From the NCBI GenBank assembly GCA_963921275.4, contig OZ001293.3, positions 544,001 to 608,000 on the forward strand: DNA of 64,000 bases. Reading direction: 5' to 3'. The notes beneath the pieces were generated by a model, which saw nothing but the letters and a program-made list of their open reading frames with translations, made no database searches and was not told where the DNA came from. Source of the DNA: an uncultured Hormoscilla sp. (GTDB lineage Bacteria; Cyanobacteriota; Cyanobacteriia; Cyanobacteriales; Desertifilaceae). Below are positions 20,725-63,995 of this stretch, in pieces; positions within the stretch are counted from its first letter, which is position 1, and the number at the start of each line of letters is the position of its first letter. Made by a program: the position numbers and the translations under genes.

Positions 20725-21666
20725 GTGCGAATTGTTTTGGCGTAAGTCTGAAATATGGCGATAGCCGGGCTGGTTAATACCAGCAACTCTGGTCATCATG
20801 GGGGTTCAATTCCCCTTCCCCCAGGTACGGGGGTGACCGCGTGAGGTGCTGCGGAGTAACATTACCGTGGTGCCTCCCGAGGACAAATGTAGGATAAGGT
20901 CTCAGCCCAGAGACCGACGCCGCATGGCTGCGCCACGCTGCGCGATCGGAAAGAGGCTCATGGTTAGAGCAAGCGAATCCCTGTAAGCATCGTCATCTTA
21001 AACAAGCGAAAAGAGGCTGACACGCTTGGTGCAAAATGCGCACGCAGTCCGCGTATCAGTGGTTGCATGTCACTGATATCGTACCCGAAATGACTGCCGG
21101 TGTATAGGGGAGACCTAAAAGCCTCGTGAAATGATACCAGGGAACGTTCCGGACAAGAGCGGTGCTGTCCAGATGGACAAGTCAGATGTGCGTCCGCGTA
21201 GCGTGCGCGCAGCGCCTAGCGCATGCCCGCGTGGGGAGGGAGGTCCTAAGAAGCTAATGCCCGGGGTAATGCCTGTGGATATGCAGACGTAGGACGGATA
21301 TGGTAAAAAGCTCTAGGAGATAGTAGCCCTCTAAACGTGCTTAACCAGTGGCAACACTAGGTAGTAATGATGGACTGAAATCCTAACCGGGTAAAAAATT
21401 TAGAGGCCCCATACGGGCACCTGTTAGTAAAGAACGGTCATAGTGGTTTTCTAGTTCTCCCCCGTAAACCTTCCGGAGTTAGGTACTCAACTAGTTCATG
21501 ACTGACCATAAAGGGGCTATATTTCATAGGGCAAGGGACAACGGGAGTAATCTCTAGTAATCCTACCCGTGACAAGGGTTTACCAACCAGTAGCCGTGTG
21601 CGGTGAAAGTCGCTCTTCAGGTTCCGAATGGGAGGATTGTCCCGCGAGGGACAGCTCGACCCCGAC
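20725..21666 (+). mobile_element. ORF-less group II intron (intron 2, 942 nt), intergenic, partly degenerate
   Basis: 5' GTGCG; DV AGCCGTGTGCGGTGAAAGTCGCTCTTCAGGTTC (with mismatches) at ~21592; DVI ending CTCGACCCCGAC; DI homologous to intron 1. Confidence 0.88.
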
Positions 21667-23305
21667 CATACTCCCTGTCAACAGAAAATAATTATTAATT
21701 AAATATAGAAGTAGCCGATAAGCGAATGAAACTATAGGAGTGAAAAAAATGGATATAATTTACGGGACGGCTGGAAATGATGCGATCGTCGGTACAGCAG
21801 AGAATGACATCATAGTTGCCAGAGCTGGAAATGACGATCGTGTTTCCCTTTCAAGGAGATGACGATCGTGATTGCCAGCACGGGTAATGACTCGATAGAC
21901 GGTGGCGAAGGTGATGATATCATCAGATCGGGTCCAGGTAATGACCAGCTTGATGGTGAAAACGGTAATGATATTCTCGATGGAGACCAAAACAGAGATA
22001 CATTAACAGGAGGTCCGGGCAGAGATATATTTGTGCTCAGTTCAGGAGAATATCTGATTAGGGACTTTGTTGATGGTGAAGATTTGCTCGGGTTATCAGA
22101 TGGTATAACCTTTAATCAGCTGCTGATATCTACAGGAATTGGTGCTAATGCAGGGGACACGAATATTCTGCGTAACGGTAAAGTATTGGCAAGATTAGAA
22201 AATGTTAACCCCAGGAAGATCGATCGGAATGATTTTACCACGAACCTGACACCAATATCAACACCGACACCGACACGCTGCGCTAACACCGACACCGACA
22301 CACAGCTACGCCTGCGCTATCAAATCCAGGCAGATTAGCATTTTCTCAACCTACCTACAATGTCAGGGAAAATGTACTCACTGCTACAATTACAGTCGCG
22401 CGATCGGGTGGTAGCGATGGTGCAGTTAGCGCAAATTATAGCACTTTCAATGGCACAGCTACAGCGGGATCGGATTATTTGTCTACATCAGGGAGACTGA
22501 ATTTTGCTGATGGAGAGACTAGGAAAACTTTTACCATCTCTATCCGGGATGATAATGTGGTTGAGGGGAACGAGACTGTTAACTTGCTTTTGAGCAACCC
22601 TAGGGGTGGGGGAGATCTAGGGACGCAAAATACTGCTACGATCCCTTCGGGATGCATGGCAAAAACCCCTCAGGCATCGCTCTGACAATTGTAGATGCCG
22701 AACCCATCAGTTCTGGCATTAACATTGGACCAACAGCACAAGAGCAGGAAATGATGGAGATGCTCAACCGGATGTGCTTCGATGTCTGAGGGATGCATGG
22801 CAAAAACCCCTCAGACATCGCGAACCCATCTGGAGAGTTGGGCATTTTGGTTAACAGTCTTAACCCCATCTCTTCACCAGATCCGGATGTCAACAGGGTG
22901 CTCAATTTCTTTAATGTTGATGGTAATCTATTGGCATCCCAGTGGAGCAGTCTGACCCCAGCACCCCCACTTGCTTGGTCTGAAGAGCTGCACGATGCTG
23001 CTAGCGGTCATGGCCAGCAGATAATTGCTTGGGATCGACAGTCCCATCAACTCCCTGGCGAGCAGCCTTTAGGCCAGCGGATTGCTAATGCTGGGTATAA
23101 TAATGTTTCTGGCTATGCTGAGAATATCTTTGCTTTCTCAGAGTCGGTCTTCTACGGTCACGCTGGGTTGGCGATACTGCTGCGCAGTCGCTGCGCGAAC
23201 GACTGGGATGACAGCTTGACGGGGATCCAAAACCCGCCCATCGATGCCTTCCGGACGCACGGCGAAAACCCGGAAGGCATCGCACCGTAATATTATGATG
23301 AGCAG

Positions 23306-25061
23306 GTGCGATTCGTTTAACGTAAATTTCACCGGTGATAACCGGTAAAAGGGACCGCTAGCAGGGTAACACAAAACCCTGACAACTTACAGATGATGGT
23401 GGTGAAAGCCCACCCCTCCAGGTGTAGGAGTGACAGCACATTCCCGACGGTAGCGATGGCATCAATCCGTAAAGCGGGAATGAAAGGCGACTGGTAGCCT
23501 ACACCGGTCCGATACCTGAGGGGTTGCCTGCGTTGCATCCCGAAGGCATCGAAGCCAAGCAAGTAGCCATGATGAGCATAAAGCAAAGATTTGCAGCGTC
23601 GTAACATAAAACCAGTGAAATAAGGCTGACGGCCCAAAAGGGAAAGGATACAGGTCGCTGGCGGTTCTGCTCACCGACCAGTAAGCACCGACAACAAACC
23701 CGGCGTAAGGAATCCATCCTTAGCTACAACTAATCACCTGTAGGAACGAAGTAACCTGATCATGTACTCTCTATCGAGTCGGTGCGATTCGTTCTAGCCT
23801 AACGTGGTCAAACACGGAACGCTAGCCCGGTTTCATTAGCCGGGAACTCTGACCGCATGGGGGTTAAATTCCCCTCCCCCCAGGTACGGGGGTGACACCG
23901 GTCCTCGGTGCTACGAAGCGACATCATCGTGGTGCTAAGCGAGGACTCAAATGTAGGATAACTGGCAGCCTAAGCCGGTGACGCCGCTAGGAAAGATATC
24001 CAAGGTTAGAGCAGGCAAACATGTGCAAGCCTCGTTATAAGGAACCAGCGAAATAAGGCTATATGCGCTGGCCTAAAAAGGAAATGGTAGCTAGTATTAG
24101 TTTTAGACTCTGGCTAATATAGTACTCAAATAGCTCCCGGGGTATAGTGTGGACCTAAAGGTATCGCGAAATGTTGTTAGGGAACGAAGTAACCTCTCGT
24201 GTGCTGTCCATCAGGACAAGTTAGATGTTAAGCGCAAGCCACGGGGGGAGGGATGGCCCAAGAAGCGAATGCCCGGGGTAATTCCTGGGATAACATCTAC
24301 AGTAATGTAGATGATGCTGGGTAGCCAGCGCTGACGTGGGTCGGTGATACTAGGAAGCTGCTGGAATGAGTAATCCTAAAAAGCCACGGAACTAATCCGA
24401 AACGCAAGTGGAGGATAAGGTATGGATAACTGGTAAAACTGACTTGAAAATGGTGATACTAACGGTTATCAGAACAACCACTCGCTAAACCAGGAAAGGG
24501 AAGAAAAGACAGGCGGCAAGGGCTAACGGAAGTAATTCCTATTAAGTCTACCTATGAAAAGGGCCTAGTACCCAGTAGCCGGATGTGGTGAAAATCGCAA
24601 GTCCGGTTCCTCAAGGGAGGGTCGGGAAGCGATTCCCGGCTCGACCCCATCCATAGCCACCAAAGGCGCAACCTCTGCCTTCATCAGGCAGGTCATGATT
24701 AGGAAGGATTTCGTGGAGAAGCAAACGCCTATCTGTAATGGACAGGATAAGCCGACCACGGTAATGTCAAATGTGAAGTTGTAAGTAGCAGTAAAAACCT
24801 TATGAGCACGGTAATCAAACCAATGAATGAATGGAGGACAACCCCCCCTGGCGAAAGCTGGAAAGGAAAGTCTTTTGCTTCTGAGAATTTACAGAGCGGC
24901 ACAACGTGGCGACAACTGCTACGATGTAAAAAAAACTGCCAGCGATGGTAGTCGCCGTATCCATGACAGGGATGGCATTACTGAGGAGCCGGATGAGGTG
25001 AAAAGCAGATCGTCCGGTTCTGAAGACGAGACGGGGTGGCAACACCCTGGCTTAGTTTAAC
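23306..25061 (+). mobile_element. ORF-less group II intron, outer member of twintron (887 nt without the inner intron)
   Basis: 5' GTGCG; EBS1 CTGCTC pairs perfectly with exon end GAGCAG; DV GAGCCGGATGAGGTGAAAAGCAGATCGTCCGGTTC at ~24986; 3' end TTTAAC; removal gives in-frame AG|G. Confidence 0.9.
23782..24650 (+). mobile_element. ORF-less group II intron, inner member of twintron (869 nt)
   Basis: 5' GTGCG; DV at ~24577-24609; 3' CTCGACCCCAT; near-identical to 29872-30740. Confidence 0.93.
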
Positions 25062-25466
25062 GAATTACCGGGAGGTGGGTATTGCGGTCCTACCCGAAAA
25101 TAACTCCAATACTAGCGTCGGTCCCCTGGTGGTTGTCCAGAATTTTGGCTCGCGCTCAAACAACGGCCTACCCTGGTTGTTGGGAGTAGTGTTTGCAGAT
25201 GCTGACGCGCGACAATTTCTACGACAGCGGCGAAGGACTAGGGGGCGTTAATGTCAACATTAGCGGTTCCAATGGTTCCTTTTCTACCAGGACTATGACT
25301 GCTGGTGACTATCAGCAGCAGGTATGGAGTTATTACTCAAGTTGTCAATATCGGGTTTGATAATACTAAACTTGACCTAATGGTTTACGGGGCTCCCTAC
25401 AAATGGTAAAGACTGTAGTCGTCACTACAAACGGCCTCTCACGCTGTCCTCTAGGTAAGACTCGCC

Positions 25467-27317
25467 GTGCAACCCGTTGACTTTACTACCCTAACTGCTG
25501 CTTGTGCTGAACTGCGCGATCGCATGCTGCCCGCCAGACTAGAACAAGTCTATCAGCGCGATCGGCACAATCTGGCCCTAGCATTGCGTACCCTGAGGGG
25601 CCGAAATTGGCTAAATATCTGCTGGCATCCCCAAGCCGCACATATATGCATCGGCGACCCACCGCCGAAAATCCCCGATACCTTTACCTTTAGCGACCAA
25701 CTCCGACATCAACTGCATGGTCTGGCCTGGGTGGCCATTGAACCAGTCGCCCCTTGGGAAAGGGCCTTAGACCTACAATTTGCCAAGCGTCCGGGAGAAC
25801 CAGCCCTCTGGCACCTGTACGTAGAGATCATGGGCAAATACAGTAACGTAATTTTAACCAATCAGCAGAACCAGATCGTCACAGCCGCCCACCAGGTAAG
25901 CGAAGAAAAATCCAGCGTCCGTCCCATTCTCACCGGTCAGCCCTACTCACTGCCACCAGCCCTGACTAATCCTATTCCCAATTTAAGCGAATCTCCCCAA
26001 CACTGGCAAGAGCGAGTGGGATTAGTTCCCGGACAGTTGTGGCGTCAACTGCTCAAATGCTATCGCGGACTGAGTCCAACCCTGGTAAAATCAATGGTCG
26101 CAGCAGCGGGGTTAGAGCCAAATCAACCTACCGATACTCTCACAGATGTAGAGTGGCAGCAATTGTGGAAATGCTGGCAATTCTGGTTGCAGGCCCTAGA
26201 AACAGCGCAATTTCATCCGGGCTGGACAAAAGAGGGATATACTATCATGGGTTGGGGCGCAACGGCACCAGTCCCTTCTACCCATGAATTGCTCGATCGC
26301 TACTATACCAGCCAGTTGAACCGCCAGGAATTCACCCAACTCCGCCATCAACTCCTGCAAAAACTCGATCGCCTCTTAGAAAAGCAGGGTCAAAAAGCCC
26401 TGACATTCTGGGAACGGTTACAGCAATCGGACTCCGCCGACGAGCATCGTCAACAGGCTGACTTGCTGATGGCCTACTTGCAAGAATGGCAACCGGGAAT
26501 GACATCCATTTCCCTGTGCGACTTCCAAACAAATGTACCCATTACCATTCCCCTAGATCCCAAAAAGAATGCTATCCAAAATGCTCAATCCCTTTACAAG
26601 CGTCACCAGAAGCTGAAACGGGCCCGCAGTGCAGTTGAACCATTATTCAACCAAGTGAAGGTAGAAATTGAGTATCTCGAACTGGTGAAAGCTACCGTCT
26701 GGCAACTGGATAGCTACGAGGCTAAGGAAGATTTACAAACTCTAGCAGAAATTCGCGAAGAGTTAATCGGTCAGGGATATTTGGACAAGTCCGAACAGCC
26801 CCGCCTTCGATGCCTTCGGGATGCTAGCGGCTGCGCAGCCGCTGCGCTAACGCAAAAACCTACGATGCCCGAGGGGAGCGCTAGTCGCACTACCCCTCGG
26901 GCATCGCTCAGGCATCGACGCCATACTGATACTTCTGTTCCTTATCGTTTCCAGACACCCAGCGGTTTTGAACTGTTAATCGGTCGCAACAACCGGCAGA
27001 ATGACCAGATCTCTTTTCGGATCGCCAATGACTATGACCTCTGGTTTCACACCCAAGAAATTCCTGGTAGTCACGTGCTCATGCGGTTACAACCTGGTAA
27101 ACTACCCGATGACGTGGATTTGCAATTTGCCGCCGACCTGGCAGGGTATTATAGTCAGGGACGCCAGAGCGATCGGGTGCCGGTGGTGTACACAGCCCCC
27201 AAGCATGTTTATAAACCCAAGGGCGCCAAACCTGGTATGGTCATCTACAAGCAAGAGACTGTCCTCTGGGGGCGGCCCCAACAGGCGAGCGGGCGAGCGG
27301 TGATTGAAAAGATATAA
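25467..27317 (+). CDS. rqcH: NFACT/RqcH (FbpA) ribosome quality-control protein with a 36-aa in-frame insert
   Basis: MQPVDFTTL, EIMGKYSN, NAQSLYK, GRNNRQND and WFHTQEIPGSHV motifs. Confidence 0.9.
   Translation: MQPVDFTTLTAACAELRDRMLPARLEQVYQRDRHNLALALRTLRGRNWLNICWHPQAAHICIGDPPPKIPDTFTFSDQLRHQLHGLAWVAIEPVAPWERALDLQFAKRPGEPALWHLYVEIMGKYSNVILTNQQNQIVTAAHQVSEEKSSVRPILTGQPYSLPPALTNPIPNLSESPQHWQERVGLVPGQLWRQLLKCYRGLSPTLVKSMVAAAGLEPNQPTDTLTDVEWQQLWKCWQFWLQALETAQFHPGWTKEGYTIMGWGATAPVPSTHELLDRYYTSQLNRQEFTQLRHQLLQKLDRLLEKQGQKALTFWERLQQSDSADEHRQQADLLMAYLQEWQPGMTSISLCDFQTNVPITIPLDPKKNAIQNAQSLYKRHQKLKRARSAVEPLFNQVKVEIEYLELVKATVWQLDSYEAKEDLQTLAEIREELIGQGYLDKSEQPRLRCLRDASGCAAAALTQKPTMPEGSASRTTPRASLRHRRHTDTSVPYRFQTPSGFELLIGRNNRQNDQISFRIANDYDLWFHTQEIPGSHVLMRLQPGKLPDDVDLQFAADLAGYYSQGRQSDRVPVVYTAPKHVYKPKGAKPGMVIYKQETVLWGRPQQASGRAVIEKI
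26809..26916. mobile_element. Composite hairpin mini-element insert (42+24+42 bp), in frame in rqcH
   Basis: Outer GATGCCTTCGGGATGC..GGCATC holds a 24-nt SDR-like piece and a 42-nt GATGCCCGAGGGGAGCGCTAGTCGCACTACCCCTCGGGCATC. Confidence 0.85.
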
Positions 27318-27432
27318 TAGGGCTAATTTATGCTTTAGCTAACATCAGATAAAATCTTTTTATGTAAAGTTCAGAAAATTTATGTAAATTTTTATGACAA
27401 AAAATTAGTGTATGTTGCTACAATATATTTAA

Positions 27433-27543
27433 GGTGATTCCCGGAAAAGAAAATACCTGGATGAACTCCAAAGCACGACGGTACCCGAGAGGAAAGCCAA
27501 ACCTGCATGTCGGATCTTGGTACCTTTTTTTTCAGAAATCACC
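27433..27543. mobile_element. 111-bp MITE with TAA target duplication
   Basis: TIR GGTGATT../..AATCACC flanked by TAA; absent at the homologous site in the duplicate (~62410). Confidence 0.8.
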
Positions 27544-27915
27544 TAAGAGAAAAAAAAGTTAAACATTTACCCGCCTACGCCTTGGGAAGCGCAGTTCGGG
27601 TTTCCTCTCTCCGACAACTGATCGACAACTTTGACCAAGACCAGCGATAATATAGCTGGTCTTGGTTTATTGTGCTTGACATGAGGCGGTTTGCATTCCG
27701 ATGAGGTACAGACGCACATTAGATAGCCGGTGAAGACTAGATATGGATGTACTCCACGAGGATGAAAACCACTATAAATGCGTTGACGGGAGCGCGATCG
27801 CCTCTCATACTGTTATAATGGCTACAGTTGCGGAGCTCCTGGTCAAAATCCCTATGTTGACCGAGCAAAAACACCTGTAACGAGCAAAAAGCGTCAGTAG
27901 ATACTATAGAGTAAA

Positions 27916-29694: not shown

Positions 29695-31100
29695 TTAATG
29701 TAGGTCTGATTGCCAGATGCAGATGTAGAGGCGATCGCGCTTAGTTTCCCACTTAATGATGCCTTCAAGGGGACCGAGGGTAAAGGAGTAGTGGGCGGCG
29801 TCTCCTGGGTAGTGCGACTAGCGCTCCCAGGAGACACCGGGGGACTGGCGAGTCCAAACCTGTTGGAGTCCGTGCGATTCGTTCTAGCCTAACGTGGTCA
29901 AACACGGAACGCTAGCCCGGTTTCATTAGCCGGGAACTCTGACCGCATGGGGGTTAAATTCCCCTCCCCCCAGGTACGGGGGTGACACCGGTCCTCGGTG
30001 CTACGAAGCGACATCATCGTGGTGCTAAGCGAGGACTCAAATGTAGGATAACTGGCAGCCTAAGCCGGTGACGCCGCTAGGAAAGATATCCAAGGTTAGA
30101 GCAGGCAAACATGTGCAAGCCTCGTTATAAGGAACCAGCGAAATAAGGCTATATGCGCTGGCCTAAAAAGGAAATGGTAGCTAGTATTAGTTTTAGACTC
30201 TGGCTAATATAGTACTCAAATAGCTCCCGGGGTATAGTGTGGACCTAAAGGTATCGCGAAATGTTGTTAGGGAACGAAGTAACCTCTCGTGTGCTGTCCA
30301 TCAGGACAAGTTAGATGTTAAGCGCAAGCCACGGGGGGAGGGATGGCCCAAGAAGCGAATGCCCGGGGTAATTCCTGGGATAACATCTACAGTAATGTAG
30401 ATGATGCTGGGTAGCCAGCGCTGACGTGGGTCGGTGATACTAGGAAGCTGCTGGAATGAGTAATCCTAAAAAGCCACGGAACTAATCCGAAACGCAAGTG
30501 GAGGATAAGGTATGGATAACTGGTAAAACTGATTTTAAAATGGTGATACTAACGGTTATCAGAACAACCACTCGCTAAACCAGGAAAGGGAAGAAAAGAC
30601 AGGCGGCAAGGGCTAACGGAAGTAATTCCTATTAAGTCTACCTATGAAAAGGGCCTAGTACCCAGTAGCCGGATGCGGTGAAAATCGCAAGTCCGGTTCC
30701 TCAAGGGAGGGTCGGGAAGCGATTCCCGGCTCGACCCCATCCGAGTTGGAGTTCCTGATTTATCTGACAGCCGGACATAGCATCGAAGGTTTTCAGCACC
30801 TCCTGAAAATCAAACTCAGTCACAAAGGAAGCTTCGGTTTGGCGAATCACTCCAGAATTGCCATCAAACAGGAAGCCCAAGCTGACTCGATCGCGAATCA
30901 GTTCATAGAAAACAGCATCTGTATGGGCCAAATAGCCTTTCTCAGTCCCAGTTGGAACGCCAAACATGCGCAGGACATAACTTTTGTGAATTCCTGGTTG
31001 AAATCATGGAATTCCTACGCCGATAGGCATCTGACGACAGACCTGTTCGTGCATCTGCCAAGGAGTTAGTTGCAGTAATGAAGTTTCTTCTACAGGAACT
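29695..31100 (-). pseudogene. Remnant of a conserved cyanobacterial C-terminal domain (often kinase-associated), interrupted by an antisense intron and a hairpin element
   Basis: ..VSLGFLFD..IRQTEASF..QLG|LQQVWTRQS[42 bp]HYSFTLGPLEGIIKW..RLYICIWQSDLH*. Confidence 0.6.
29872..30740 (+). mobile_element. ORF-less group II intron (869 nt), second copy of the twintron inner intron
   Basis: Same length as 23782-24650 with about 3 substitutions seen; DV AGCCGGATGCGGTGAAAATCGCAAGTCCGGTTC. Confidence 0.93.
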
Positions 31101-45911: not shown

Positions 45912-47289
45912 GTGCTCCTGCTGCTGTTTGGTCGAGAATACTGCCACTAATGTGGGTAGTAATATTATGAGTTTCTAGCACGGGTTTTCCTTCCAGTCCT
46001 TTGGGGTAATCTATCACCGTAACTGCACAATTTCCCTGCTTAAATTTCCAGAAATGCTCTGGAGACAAGCCAAACAATTGGCAGAGAACAGCTTTATTGA
46101 TCGCGTCGTGGGCAACCACTAGACCTATACTGTTAGGGGGCGCCGATTTAACGATTTCATTCCAAGCTGCCATTCCCCGTTCCCAGACCTGCTGCAAGTT
46201 TTCTCCCTCCGGCATTTGCACCGTTGCCGGATCAGTTTTCCATTGCTCTAATTGACCTGGAAACCCTTTTTCAATTTCTGCTTTTAACTTCCCTTCCCAC
46301 AAACCGTGACTTATTTCTCTGAGTCCCTCAGACAGTTGCAGCTGCAATTGTGGGTGATGCTTTCGATGCCTCTCGGGAGCGCTAATCGCACTACCCGAGA
46401 GGCATCGGAGAATAATTTCTGCTGTTTCCTTGGGGCGTAACATGGGACTAGAAAAGGTAAAATCAATCTTCACATCTTTGAGAAACTCCCCAGCTTTCTG
46501 GGACTGTTGGCGCCCGGTTTCATTCAGCGGAATATCATTCCATCCCTGAAAGCGTTTCTCGCGGTTCCATTGTGTTTCCCCGTGACGCACTAGCAACAGT
46601 CGGCAACCCCGATGTCCTTCTCGCGGTTTGGGGAAACTCTCTCCCATATGAGATGTGAGATTCATCGATTCTAGCTGCACTGCTTCGCCCAAATCTCCAG
46701 CAAAATTCAGCACGCTGATGCTGCAGTTAGACTGCTGGAGCGAATGGTAGTAAGCTTGTGGAATTTCCACAGCGCTTGCCAGCAAGCAACGGTTAATGCC
46801 GTTGTGCGCCACTACCATAATTGTCTTGCCTTGATGGCGAGGCAAAACTTCCTGCCAGAATTTCTTTGCTTGCTCGTAGAGTGCTAAAACTGGATAATGT
46901 TCTCTGTTTCCCTCTGGTTCGGGTACTAGCATGTGAAATTCATCGGGACGTTCCTTCCAGCAGCGGTAGTCGGCGGCAAATTTTTCCTTTACCTCATCCC
47001 TGAGCATTTCTTCCCAGAGAGGCAGGTCGATCTCCCTCAAATTATCTACCTCACGCAATTCCAGCGATGGCTCTAAGCAGGATGCGATAATTTCTGCCGT
47101 GCTTTTCGCCCGTTGCAGAGGACTACAGTAGATGGCATCAAAGCTGAGACTCTTCAGGGCCGCACCCACTTTGCTGGCGTCGGCACGACCTTTTTTCGTT
47201 AAGACTGAATTGTCACACCGGCCCTGAATGCGGCCCTCAATATTGTAACTGCTTTGACCGTGACGGACTAGAATAACGCGAGTAGTCAA
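45907..47289 (-). CDS. Two-domain histidine phosphatase (phosphoglycerate mutase family) with a 42-bp in-frame hairpin insert
   Basis: Two RHG motifs (LVRHGQS, LVRHGET); insert at 46365-46406. Confidence 0.92.
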   Translation of the reverse strand: MTTRVILVRHGQSSYNIEGRIQGRCDNSVLTKKGRADASKVGAALKSLSFDAIYCSPLQRAKSTAEIIASCLEPSLELREVDNLREIDLPLWEEMLRDEVKEKFAADYRCWKERPDEFHMLVPEPEGNREHYPVLALYEQAKKFWQEVLPRHQGKTIMVVAHNGINRCLLASAVEIPQAYYHSLQQSNCSISVLNFAGDLGEAVQLESMNLTSHMGESFPKPREGHRGCRLLLVRHGETQWNREKRFQGWNDIPLNETGRQQSQKAGEFLKDVKIDFTFSSPMLRPKETAEIILRCLSGSAISAPERHRKHHPQLQLQLSEGLREISHGLWEGKLKAEIEKGFPGQLEQWKTDPATVQMPEGENLQQVWERGMAAWNEIVKSAPPNSIGLVVAHDAINKAVLCQLFGLSPEHFWKFKQGNCAVTVIDYPKGLEGKPVLETHNITTHISGSILDQTAAGAL

Positions 47290-61657: not shown

Positions 61658-62070
61658 TCTAGTAGACCTTAATCATTAAAAACAGGATAAAGGCGTTTAA
61701 GTTTGGTTCTAGCAGAGCGCGGTGGTGAAGTGCCAAGAGATAGTTTTTCTTGTGGCGTTTCGTGCTCGTATTCCAGGCCGTCAGTTCGGATTGAAGAGTG
61801 GGAAGGTCCTCTATTCGCTGCGCGAGGCACTGGCCTGTAAGTGCGGCGAGTTCAATTTCGGCTATATTGAGCCAGGAACCCTGTTTGGGCGTATGATCGA
61901 TTTCCAGGCGGTTTACTCATACGTCTAGCTTCCTGTGGTGGAAAGGTTTTGTCCGTTCGTATTTCTCCGTTCGTATTTCTCTTCCAGAGAGCTTCAAATT
62001 ACCACATAGCAAGGGTTATAGCGTTGTTGGCTAAAATTTCAAATCTAAAAATAATTATGCCCTGCTGCTT
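61658..62070. mobile_element. IS remnant(s)
   Basis: Left part matches 5677-5780; 61986-62070 matches 33128-33212. Confidence 0.55.
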
Positions 62071-62289
62071 ATAGTGGTTTTCATCTGAGTGGAGTACATC
62101 TATATATTATTCACCGGTGAGCTAATGAGCTAATGTGCCTCTGTACCTCATCGAAATGTCAACCGTCTCATGTCAAGCACAATAAAGCAATACCAGCTGC
62201 TATCCTCATCACTGGTCTCGGTCCAAGTTGTCGATAAGTTGTCGGAGAGAGGAAACCCGAACTGCGCGTTCCCAAGGCTACAGCGGGTA

Positions 62290-62388
62290 AGGAATGAGGA
62301 TTTAATAACCTGTCAAATTCCTCTAAAATGATCCTGTGACAAAACTTTATGGCTTCTCGGATGAGCATCTTGTTTAATCCTCGTTCCC
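62290..62388. mobile_element. 99-bp MITE
   Basis: TIR AGGAATGAGGATT/AATCCTCGTTCCC; absent from the homologous site at ~27567. Confidence 0.7.
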
Positions 62389-62526
62389 AAATGTTTAACT
62401 TTTTTTCTCTTAAATATATTGTAGCAACATACACTAAATTGTTGTCATAAAAATTTACATAAATTTAAGAAATATTACATAATTATCTATTATAGAATGT
62501 TAGCTAAAGCATAAATCAGCCTGATA

Positions 62527-63995
62527 TTATGTCCAGTCACCGAGCGCCCGAACGAACGCCTGTTGGGGCCGCACCCAGAGGACAGTCTCTTGCTTGTAGA
62601 TGACCATACCAGGTTTGGCGCCCTTGGGTTTATAAACATGCTTGGGGGCTGTGTACACCACCGGCACCCGATCGCTCTGGCGTCCCTGACTATAATACCC
62701 TGCCAGGTCGGCGGCAAATTGCAAATCCACGTCATCGGGTAGTTTACCAGGTTGTAACCGCATGAGCACGTGACTACCAGGAATTTCTTGGGTGTGAAAC
62801 CAGAGGTCATAGTCATTGGCGATCCGAAAAGAGATCTGGTCATTCTGCCGGTTGTTGCGACCGATTAACAGTTCAAAACCGCTGGGTGTCTGGAAACGAT
62901 AAGGAACAGAAGTATCAGTATGGCGTCGATGCCTGAGCGATGCCCGAGGGGTAGTGCGACTAGCGCTCCCCTCGGGCATCGTAGGTTTTTGCGTTAGCGC
63001 AGCGGCTGCGCAGCCGCTAGCATCCCGAAGGCATCGAAGGCGGGGCTGTTCGGACTTGTCCAAATATCCCTGATCGATTAACTCTTCGCGAATTTCTGCT
63101 AGAGTTTGTAAATCTTCCTTGGCCTCGTAGCTATCCAGTTGCCAGACGGTAGCTTTCACCAGTTCGAGATACTCAATTTCTACCTTCACTTGGTTGAATA
63201 ATGGTTCAACTGCACTGCGGGCCCGTTTCAGCTTCTGGTGACGCTTGTAAAGGGATTGAGCATTTTGGATAGCATTCTTTTTGGGATCTAGGGGAATGGT
63301 AATGGGTACATTTGTTTGGAAGTCGCACAGGGAAATGGATGTCATTCCCGGTTGCCATTCTTGCAAGTAGGCCATCAGCAAGTCAGCCTGTTGACGATGC
63401 TCGTCGGCGGAGTCCGATTGCTGTAACCGTTCCCAGAATGTCAGGGCTTTTTGACCCTGCTTTTCTAAGAGGCGATCGAGTTTTTGCAGGAGTTGATGGC
63501 GGAGTTGGGTGAATTCCTGGCGGTTCAACTGGCTGGTATAGTAGCGATCGAGCAATTCATGGGTAGAAGGGACTGGTGCCGTTGCGCCCCAACCCATGAT
63601 AGTATATCCCTCTTTTGTCCAGCCCGGATGAAATTGCGCTGTTTCTAGGGCCTGCAACCAGAATTGCCAGCATTTCCACAATTGCTGCCACTCTACATCT
63701 GTGAGAGTATCGGTAGGTTGATTTGGCTCTAACCCCGCTGCTGCGACCATTGATTTTACCAGGGTTGGACTCAGTCCGCGATAGCATTTGAGCAGTTGAC
63801 GCCACAACTGTCCGGGAACTAATCCCACTCGCTCTTGCCAGTGTTGGGGAGATTCGCTTAAATTGGGAATAGGATTAGTCAGGGCTGGTGGCAGTGAGTA
63901 GGGCTGACCGGTGAGAATGGGACGGACGCTGGATTTTTCTTCGCTTACCTGGTGGGCGGCTGTGACGATCTGGTTCTGCTGATTGGTTAAAATTA
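62527..63995 (-). pseudogene. rqcH: Second, inverted rqcH copy; identity to copy 1 breaks at 63996
   Basis: Reverse complement of 25849-27270 with about 2 substitutions seen; last 5 nt of the window (ACCTA) differ from the expected CGTTA. Confidence 0.75.

Follow-up and report, generated by a model that had tools for sequence, protein, structure and literature searches.

A probable fossil group II twintron in a decaying CAP-domain gene of an uncultured Hormoscilla sp.

A 64,000-nt stretch of DNA from an uncultured Hormoscilla sp. (GenBank assembly GCA_963921275.4, contig OZ001293.3, positions 544,001 to 608,000 of the forward strand; hereafter the window, whose own coordinates are used throughout) was analysed for a group II twintron, one intron nested in another, which a sequence-only reading had proposed at 23306-25061. 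The nesting is real. A complete 869-nt intron without an open reading frame (ORF) is inserted in domain II (DII) of an outer intron that has lost its maturase gene, and the outer intron interrupts a multiply broken pseudogene. The interval is most probably a fossil twintron in a decaying locus, in all likelihood without consequence for the cell. The two introns and the exon sequence recognised by the outer one are as follows.

23306-25061, + strand: outer group II intron, IIB-type, maturase-deleted; 887 nt long when the 869-nt inner intron is left out.
23782-24650, + strand: inner group II intron, 869 nt, ORF-less, 5' GTGCG.
23293-23305, + strand: sequence in the 5' exon recognised by the outer intron, comprising intron-binding sites IBS2 (TTATG, 23293-23297) and IBS1 (GAGCAG, 23300-23305).

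The relatives of the outer intron are maturase-encoding introns on cyanobacterial plasmids, from Nostoc sp. MS1 (L001), Tolypothrix sp. PCC 7601 (L002) and Crinalium epipsammum (L003). Both outer termini were found as proposed: GTGCG at 23306-23310, with a longer 5' string, GTGCGATTCGTT, common to the relatives, and TTTAAC ending at 25061. Both align with the Tolypothrix intron; the Nostoc and Crinalium introns have the same 5' terminus, and the 3'-end comparison covers the Tolypothrix intron alone. For alignment the inner intron was removed by script, leaving 887 nt with the insertion point at 476/477. This sequence is collinear with the Nostoc (70-738), Tolypothrix (68-738 and 741-886) and Crinalium (96-738) introns, the last at 59% identity over 665 aligned columns, and in all three the alignment continues straight across the insertion point. 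The two outer halves are one intron.

Exon recognition was assigned within this alignment. Exon-binding site 1 (EBS1) CTGCTC (23667-23672) pairs with IBS1, the last six exon bases, at 6/6 positions by Watson-Crick pairs, as the sequence-only reading had it, and sits in a hairpin loop homologous to the EBS1 loop of other introns. EBS2 CATAA (23605-23609) pairs with IBS2 TTATG at 5/5 positions. In the matching alignment columns L001, L002 and L003 have different loop sequences, each complementary to its own exon (EBS1 5/6 in all; EBS2 5/6, 6/6 and 5/6, respectively), which supports both assignments. Excision of 23306-25061 joins AG|G and gives HRNIMMSR|NYREVGIAV, identical to residues 447-463 of P0001, the closest relative of the host gene product. 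P0001 reads NPPSHRNIMMSRNYREVGIAVLPENN (including SHRNIMMSRNYREVGIAV) at the junction without interruption. By tblastn its residues 446-454 lie at 23280-23306 and residues 455-506 at 25063-25218, and junction 454/455 falls inside its Pfam CAP domain (PF00188, residues 354-482, 41.5 bits). The claim that excision restores a CAP-type motif was therefore borne out.

Rfam support for the ends came from permissive searches. At gathering thresholds (40 bits for RF00029, 53 bits for RF04357), a scan of the whole 64-kb window found group II domain V/domain VI (DV/DVI) matches at 2558-2635 (47.0 bits) and 30664-30740 (44.4 bits), and no match was reported for 23306-25061. In E-value mode, a scan of 22000-26500 gave six matches, of which the two to RF00029 stop exactly at the two proposed 3' ends. 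The outer match covers 24984-25061 (26.4 bits, E=0.034) and the inner 24574-24650 (39.2 bits, E=2.4e-5; 0.8 bit under the gathering score). RF04357, a D5-only model, matches the outer intron at 24983-25024 (37.3 bits, E=7.4e-6). The Rfam models of domains I-IV gave a single weak match in 22000-26500 (RF01999, 22 bits, E=0.21, in the inner intron), which was not used. The boundary check that the sequence-only reading had called for thus returned nothing at gathering thresholds and agreed with the proposal at both 3' ends in the permissive mode. The null result at gathering thresholds is the point in favour of a chance arrangement, in which two unrelated intron fragments flank a complete intron and nothing is nested. 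Such an arrangement is extremely unlikely: three intact introns align collinearly with both halves, a helix joins one half to the other, and excision restores the exon junction exactly.

Six domains were assigned to the reconstructed 887-nt outer intron, as expected of a group II intron, although its DV is non-canonical. Domains I to III (DI-DIII) were placed with RNAalifold on four introns and with single folds, domain IV (DIV) by maturase remnants, and DV and DVI by the Rfam alignments.

23306-23750, + strand: outer DI, from RNAalifold on four introns; closed by helix I(i), 23312-23317 with 23745-23750.
23755-24703, + strand: outer DII, basal helix 23755-23764 with 24694-24703; the inner intron lies in its distal hairpin loop.
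24708-24765, + strand: outer DIII, a conserved block with a basal helix common to the three relatives.
24766-24985, + strand: outer DIV with maturase remnants, from tblastn with the Tolypothrix LtrA protein.
24986-25020, + strand: outer DV; AGC triad and 9-bp basal helix kept, upper helix and two-base bulge gone.
25024-25061, + strand: outer DVI, from the Rfam alignment; unpaired A at 25054, the eighth base from the 3' end.

The inner intron had been placed in the domain I region by the sequence-only reading; this position was not upheld. RNAalifold on the four introns gave a DI closed by 7-12/440-445 (numbered in the 887-nt sequence), a separate domain between 454 and 525, and then DIII. Helix I(i) has standard pairs in 23 of 24 cells across the four introns, with one U-A to C-G change. 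Since DI closes at 23745-23750, before the insertion, it is the distal loop of DII that holds the inner intron. The basal helix of DII, which joins both outer halves, formed in all five singly folded introns, each with a different sequence, and was also recovered by RNAalifold. In the Nostoc and Crinalium introns the DII loop carries the motif GAGGTCGAA, which corresponds to GAGTCG|CC here and resembles the target of the inner intron.

The structure also bears on an assembly artefact, in which a mis-join between repeated intron copies would have placed the 869-nt repeat here. A near-identical sister copy lies merely 6 kb away, a 1.9-kb inverted duplication (92%) is also present in the window, and the nearest genome, among the matches listed, is metagenome-assembled. 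Against this, the insert is flanked by the halves of a single DII hairpin, which are collinear with the relatives, and the two intron copies differ at three positions. A mis-join would bring foreign flanks, so this explanation is very unlikely.

The inner element is mobile as a discrete unit and forms a complete intron bounded by termini of its own. Its parts and its sister copy are listed below; helix I(i) and DII were placed by homology and a single fold.

23788-23793 with 24183-24188, + strand: inner helix I(i).
24035-24046, + strand: inner EBS2 region, a tentative placement.
24105-24110, + strand: inner EBS1, AGACTC.
24193-24251, + strand: inner DII.
24577-24608, + strand: inner DV.
29872-30740, + strand: sister copy of the inner intron, in non-coding or coding-unassigned DNA.

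By blastn the sister copy is 99.655% identical to the inner intron and has the same ends, in agreement with the 869-nt unit that the sequence-only reading had delimited; 3 of 869 positions differ (662, 665 and 805). The RF00029 score of the sister copy is 44.4 bits. The flanks of the two copies are unrelated except at the target, which reads GAGTCG|CC for the twintron copy and GAGTCC|CC for the sister copy, that is, GAGTC, any base and CC. Because a copy 6 kb away differs at just 3/869 bases, the inner insertion was recent. The family shares the 5' sequence GTGCGATTCGTTCTAGCC, and the search of the window also found a 72% identical relative at 1802-2632 and a distant, partly degenerate one at about 20797-21663. 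With RNAalifold on four members of the inner family, the EBS1 hairpin, a long-range DIV helix and DV were recovered; I(i) and DII were not. The inner DV fold is textbook, with a basal helix, a two-base bulge and a GAAA-capped upper helix. Of the three features of trans-mobilised TeI3-like introns, two were found in the inner intron, the lack of an intron-encoded protein and near-identical dispersed copies; the third would be a driver maturase with its gene at another place in the genome, on which both the mobility and the splicing of the inner intron would depend.

That neither intron encodes a maturase was corroborated, and the outer one is a deletion derivative. With Tolypothrix LtrA (607 aa) as tblastn query, residues 17-25 were found at 24849-24875 (WRKLERKVF) and residues 30-41 at 24884-24919 (RIYRAAQRGDNC). 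Residues 563-591 match 24914-25003, directly following the N-terminal remnant and running into DV. About 520 codons (~1.5 kb) of the maturase gene have been deleted, leaving N- and C-terminal remnants and an outer intron without a maturase. The same query found no maturase remnant in the inner intron. No reverse transcriptase (RT)/maturase domain was found in 51 translations from the window (13 + 38), a scan that left 20 of the 59 ORFs of at least 110 aa outside it.

The outer intron carries two further changes. The first is a hairpin element in DI.

23510-23551, - strand: hairpin element in outer DI, 42 nt, in reverse orientation relative to the copies in the exon.

This is the hairpin that the sequence-only reading had given as 40 bp; it is present and measures 42 nt. 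In the alignment it is an insertion, absent from the three relatives. The second change is in DV. By sequence the domain is clearly homologous to group II DV, and the AGC triad and the full basal helix are retained. Around the upper helix and bulge, the 3' strand reads AGCAGATC, versus GTCTCAC in the Tolypothrix relative, and the predicted fold has neither the bulge nor a GAAA-capped helix. Scores fall below those of the Tolypothrix relative (59.2 bits with RF00029 and 64.9 bits with RF04357, versus 26.4 and 37.3 bits); the RF00029 score is 33 bits under that of this closest relative and below the 40-bit gathering score, and the canonical bulge and GNRA-capped upper helix are absent. Judged by sequence comparison and Rfam model scores, these changes would inactivate the outer intron. 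Given the hairpin inserted in its DI and its non-canonical DV, it may have lost splicing altogether. The DVI, basal stem included, hardly differs from the one in the Tolypothrix intron.

The host gene is a multiply broken pseudogene of a formerly secreted RTX/Calx-beta/CAP protein. An exhaustive protein search with the 165-aa ORF of the 5' exon gave 964 relatives at E<=0.001, the best being P0001 (E=4.5e-59, 89% identity, 576 aa). The Pfam architecture of P0001 is RTX repeats, Calx-beta, CAP and CarboxypepD_reg-like. Against PF00188 the 5' exon ORF of the window alone scored 20.4 bits (gathering score 21.1). The further lesions that the sequence-only reading had seen in the gene are extensive, as tblastn of P0001 returned eight pieces in three frames.

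21749-25385, + strand: host pseudogene, orthologue of P0001 (tblastn, eight pieces).
21749-21835, + strand: piece 1, frame 2.
21844-22275, + strand: piece 2, frame 1.
22302-22643, + strand: piece 3, frame 3.
22682-23239, + strand: piece 4, frame 2; contains an in-frame stop and an insertion of 8 aa.
23280-23305, + strand: piece 5, frame 3.
25063-25218, + strand: piece 6, frame 1.
25211-25324, + strand: piece 7, frame 2.
25326-25385, + strand: piece 8, frame 3.
22639-22679, 22780-22820 and 23242-23282, + strand: hairpin elements in the host 5' exon, 41 nt each.

There are four frameshifts, one of them a +1 shift near 25215, and P0001 residues 542-556 (15 residues) are lost. The three 41-nt hairpins are insertions relative to P0001. 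With the host a multiply broken pseudogene, nothing functional would depend on splicing.

These lesions count against a working twintron, in which a trans-acting maturase would release the inner intron and then the outer one, and the CAP protein would be made. In favour of such splicing are the correct termini, a DVI with an unpaired A, EBS/IBS pairing in both introns and an exact junction, and sequential splicing has been shown for a coding-gene twintron of Trichodesmium in the available text of Pfreundt and Hess (2015; PMC4649490). Intron removal would leave the four frameshifts, the 15-residue deletion, the stop and the 41-nt insertions unrepaired, and the outer DV has lost its bulge and upper helix. 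A working twintron is accordingly improbable. It is yet harder to credit, and very doubtful, that the locus is still expressed, with both ORF-less introns removed through a remote maturase and the 41-nt hairpins removed or bypassed at the RNA level. If this were true, an apparent pseudogene would be a gene assembled by many RNA-processing events, with a maturase-less twintron and new tiny excised elements.

The position of the insert raises another route to splicing. The sequence-only reading had stated that bacterial twintrons are known, for example in Trichodesmium, and need inside-out splicing; the first part is correct, and the second is weaker than stated, because the insertion is in the peripheral DII and not in DI. 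If otherwise intact, the outer intron might not strictly need the inner one removed. It could then splice with the insert still in a dispensable DII tip, the converse of the 'zombie' twintrons of plants. The insert does lie in the distal DII loop, beyond the DII basal helix, and for plants Zumkeller et al. (2020; PMC7049729), in the text available, argue the same, outer introns splicing around an unspliced inner intron in less relevant structural parts. The outer DV is non-canonical, the host is a pseudogene, and the inner intron appears intact and recent, not fossilised; splicing of this kind is thus quite unlikely here.

The reading of the locus as a fossil twintron without consequence was weighed against several observations that count the other way. 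The AGC triad and the complete basal helix of the outer DV could permit a protein-assisted reaction, which is possible. Two intact DVs, belonging to the Tolypothrix intron and to the copy at 1802, also have non-textbook minimum-energy folds, so fold prediction alone does not discriminate for DV. The inner EBS1 pairs at 5/6 positions at both insertion sites, with position -1 unpaired, and the tentative EBS2 at 5/6 and 4/6. A maturase that might drive the inner intron was not seen elsewhere in the 64-kb window by tblastn with LtrA. Compensatory changes in the stems of the 41-nt elements make an RNA-level role for them possible. The damaged outer DV and a host gene broken in at least eight other places nevertheless make it likely that the arrangement has no consequence for expression.

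The order of events proposed for this fossil twintron has four steps. A IIB-type intron, kin to the plasmid introns of Nostocales and Crinalium, reverse-spliced into the CAP-domain region at a site matching EBS1 and EBS2. It lost about 1.5 kb of maturase gene, gained the 42-nt hairpin and lost the upper helix and bulge of DV, probably becoming inactive. More recently, a small ORF-less intron from a family with several copies in the window inserted in the distal DII loop of the outer intron at a GAGTC-N-CC target; being RT-less, it would owe its mobility and splicing to a maturase whose gene lies at another genomic site. Splicing, in principle, would release the inner intron first and the outer one second, and the arrangement is probably without effect on expression.

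Some smaller observations concern the outer intron and its host. The 10-base exon string ATGATGAGCA (positions -11 to -2; 23295-23304) is repeated in the same sense in outer DI at 23569-23578 and occurs nowhere else in the window. The string AAGCAG within the outer DV resembles IBS1. The 8-residue insertion in host piece 4 is a 24-nt in-frame insertion relative to P0001, at 23166-23197, and is made of GCTGCGC repeats; the same motif is present in an intron at 20725 and in NFACT genes.

Other members of the inner family were noted in the window and beyond it. The 72% identical relative, an intron at 1802-2635/2636, splits a Ser/Thr kinase-like gene between the DFG motif and the activation loop. 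The frame of this gene is restored with the 3' splice site at 2636 alone, one base past the Rfam match, and is shifted with 2635; the gene's N-terminal portion seems broken near 1454-1521. A fifth group II intron, at 20725-21666, is a distant relative of the inner family and lies in the spacer directly upstream of the host pseudogene. Its DV region has no Rfam match at gathering thresholds, and GCTGCGC-type repeats are present in it. Together the introns occupy 4401 nt, 6.9% of the window. A genome collection scanned with a 26-base pattern taken from the inner family's 5' end gave at least one locus, in the metagenome-assembled genome of Hormoscilla sp. GM7CHS1pb (JACONN010000002.1; locus positions 1501-2010). 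It holds a 5' fragment of about 510 nt of an inner-family intron, 78% identical to the 1802 copy. Unrelated sequence follows after about 510 nt, so this intron is truncated. A search of the literature on group II introns in Hormoscilla found no paper.

The hairpins of the twintron locus belong to a family of 41-44-nt elements found in seven places, with three members further downstream.

26863-26906, 46364-46407 and 62938-62981: further hairpin elements of the 41-44-nt family.

The ends of the elements are conserved (CGATGCC...GGCATCG), two loop types occur, and the stems vary among copies and yet remain complementary. Copies interrupt exons, the outer intron and reading frames that seem to be open (NFACT, histidine phosphatase). 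A strict hairpin scan found six hairpins, five of this type, whereas 50 shuffled controls averaged 0.12 and never had more than 1; two degenerate copies were found outside the strict scan. The 41-nt elements may resemble the small mobile repeats of Nostocales that Elhai and colleagues (2008) described. A search of the literature on small dispersed repeats in cyanobacteria found nothing relevant among the papers listed. An inverted duplication of 1.9 kb (25849-27777 and 62069-63995, 92.3% identity) runs to the end of the window and includes most of an NFACT-family gene together with its hairpins.

The locus can thus be read as a record of mobile-element accumulation in decaying DNA. Group II intron biology as known is unchanged by this twintron, and an effect on the cell is unlikely. 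Its interest lies in the order of events, in which an old outer intron would have undergone deletion of its maturase and decay and then, very recently, invasion by a small intron still uniform in sequence, which illustrates how nested non-coding DNA may build up in intron-rich, decaying genomes. Bacterial twintrons are uncommon, with few in coding sequence, and this case adds an insertion in the tip of DII and two partners without a maturase.

Cyanobacterial twintrons and trans-mobilised ORF-less introns have already been described. Several bacterial twintrons are reported, mostly outside housekeeping genes (PMC4424553, in the part available), and Thermosynechococcus has both trans-mobilised ORF-less introns and twintrons (Mohr et al., 2010; PMC2882425; here and below, according to the sections available). 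In T. elongatus, as here, the host is a cyanobacterium, deletions of about 1.5 kb leave N- and C-terminal maturase remnants (TeI3/TeI4; compare the outer intron here), and a small ORF-less intron with near-identical copies is inserted within another intron (TeI3 in TeI4). The T. elongatus introns are mobilised by a maturase encoded elsewhere, and the same would apply here. In Thermosynechococcus the ORF-less F3 introns have DIV as their insertion site, where they separate the first two ATGs of the host intron's maturase gene, and the twintrons lie outside coding genes, whereas the insertion described here is in the distal DII loop, and the twintron is in a former protein-coding gene and has a degenerate outer DV. 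An ORF-less intron nested in an ORF-less intron has a precedent in TeI3h, itself ORF-less, which a figure legend lists among the hosts of F3 intron insertion (Mohr et al., 2010).

The twintron of Trichodesmium erythraeum Tery_4732 (Pfreundt and Hess, 2015, in the sections available) is likewise a group II twintron and lies in a protein-coding gene of a cyanobacterium. Among that paper's IIB2 criteria for its host intron is the 5' consensus GUGCGAUUC, present in both the outer and the inner intron here; it is one of several criteria for the IIB2 or chloroplast-like class (with a stem-less EBS2, EBS3, and IIB-type lambda and epsilon') and the sole one compared. Unlike the present case, both Tery_4732 introns have maturase genes, domain I houses the inner one, and the twintron splices sequentially in vivo within an intact host gene; here both introns are ORF-less, the inner one is in DII, and the host is a pseudogene.

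A closer relative is on plasmid pCRI9333.04 of Crinalium epipsammum PCC 9333 (L003), where a 949-nt ORF-less intron (1807-2755; RF00029, 62.9 bits) lies within an outer intron of the same family as ours. Its removal restores an open maturase frame of at least 547 codons. This twintron is unannotated as such, and the record lists both maturase halves as separate proteins. There the inner ORF-less intron splits the maturase frame, the Thermosynechococcus pattern, whereas here it is inserted in DII. Finally, the 'zombie' twintrons of plant mitochondria (Zumkeller et al., 2020, in the part available) are also half-decayed, with one partner no longer intron-like; theirs combine a fossil inner intron with a splicing outer one, whereas ours combines a decayed-looking outer intron with an intact-looking inner one.

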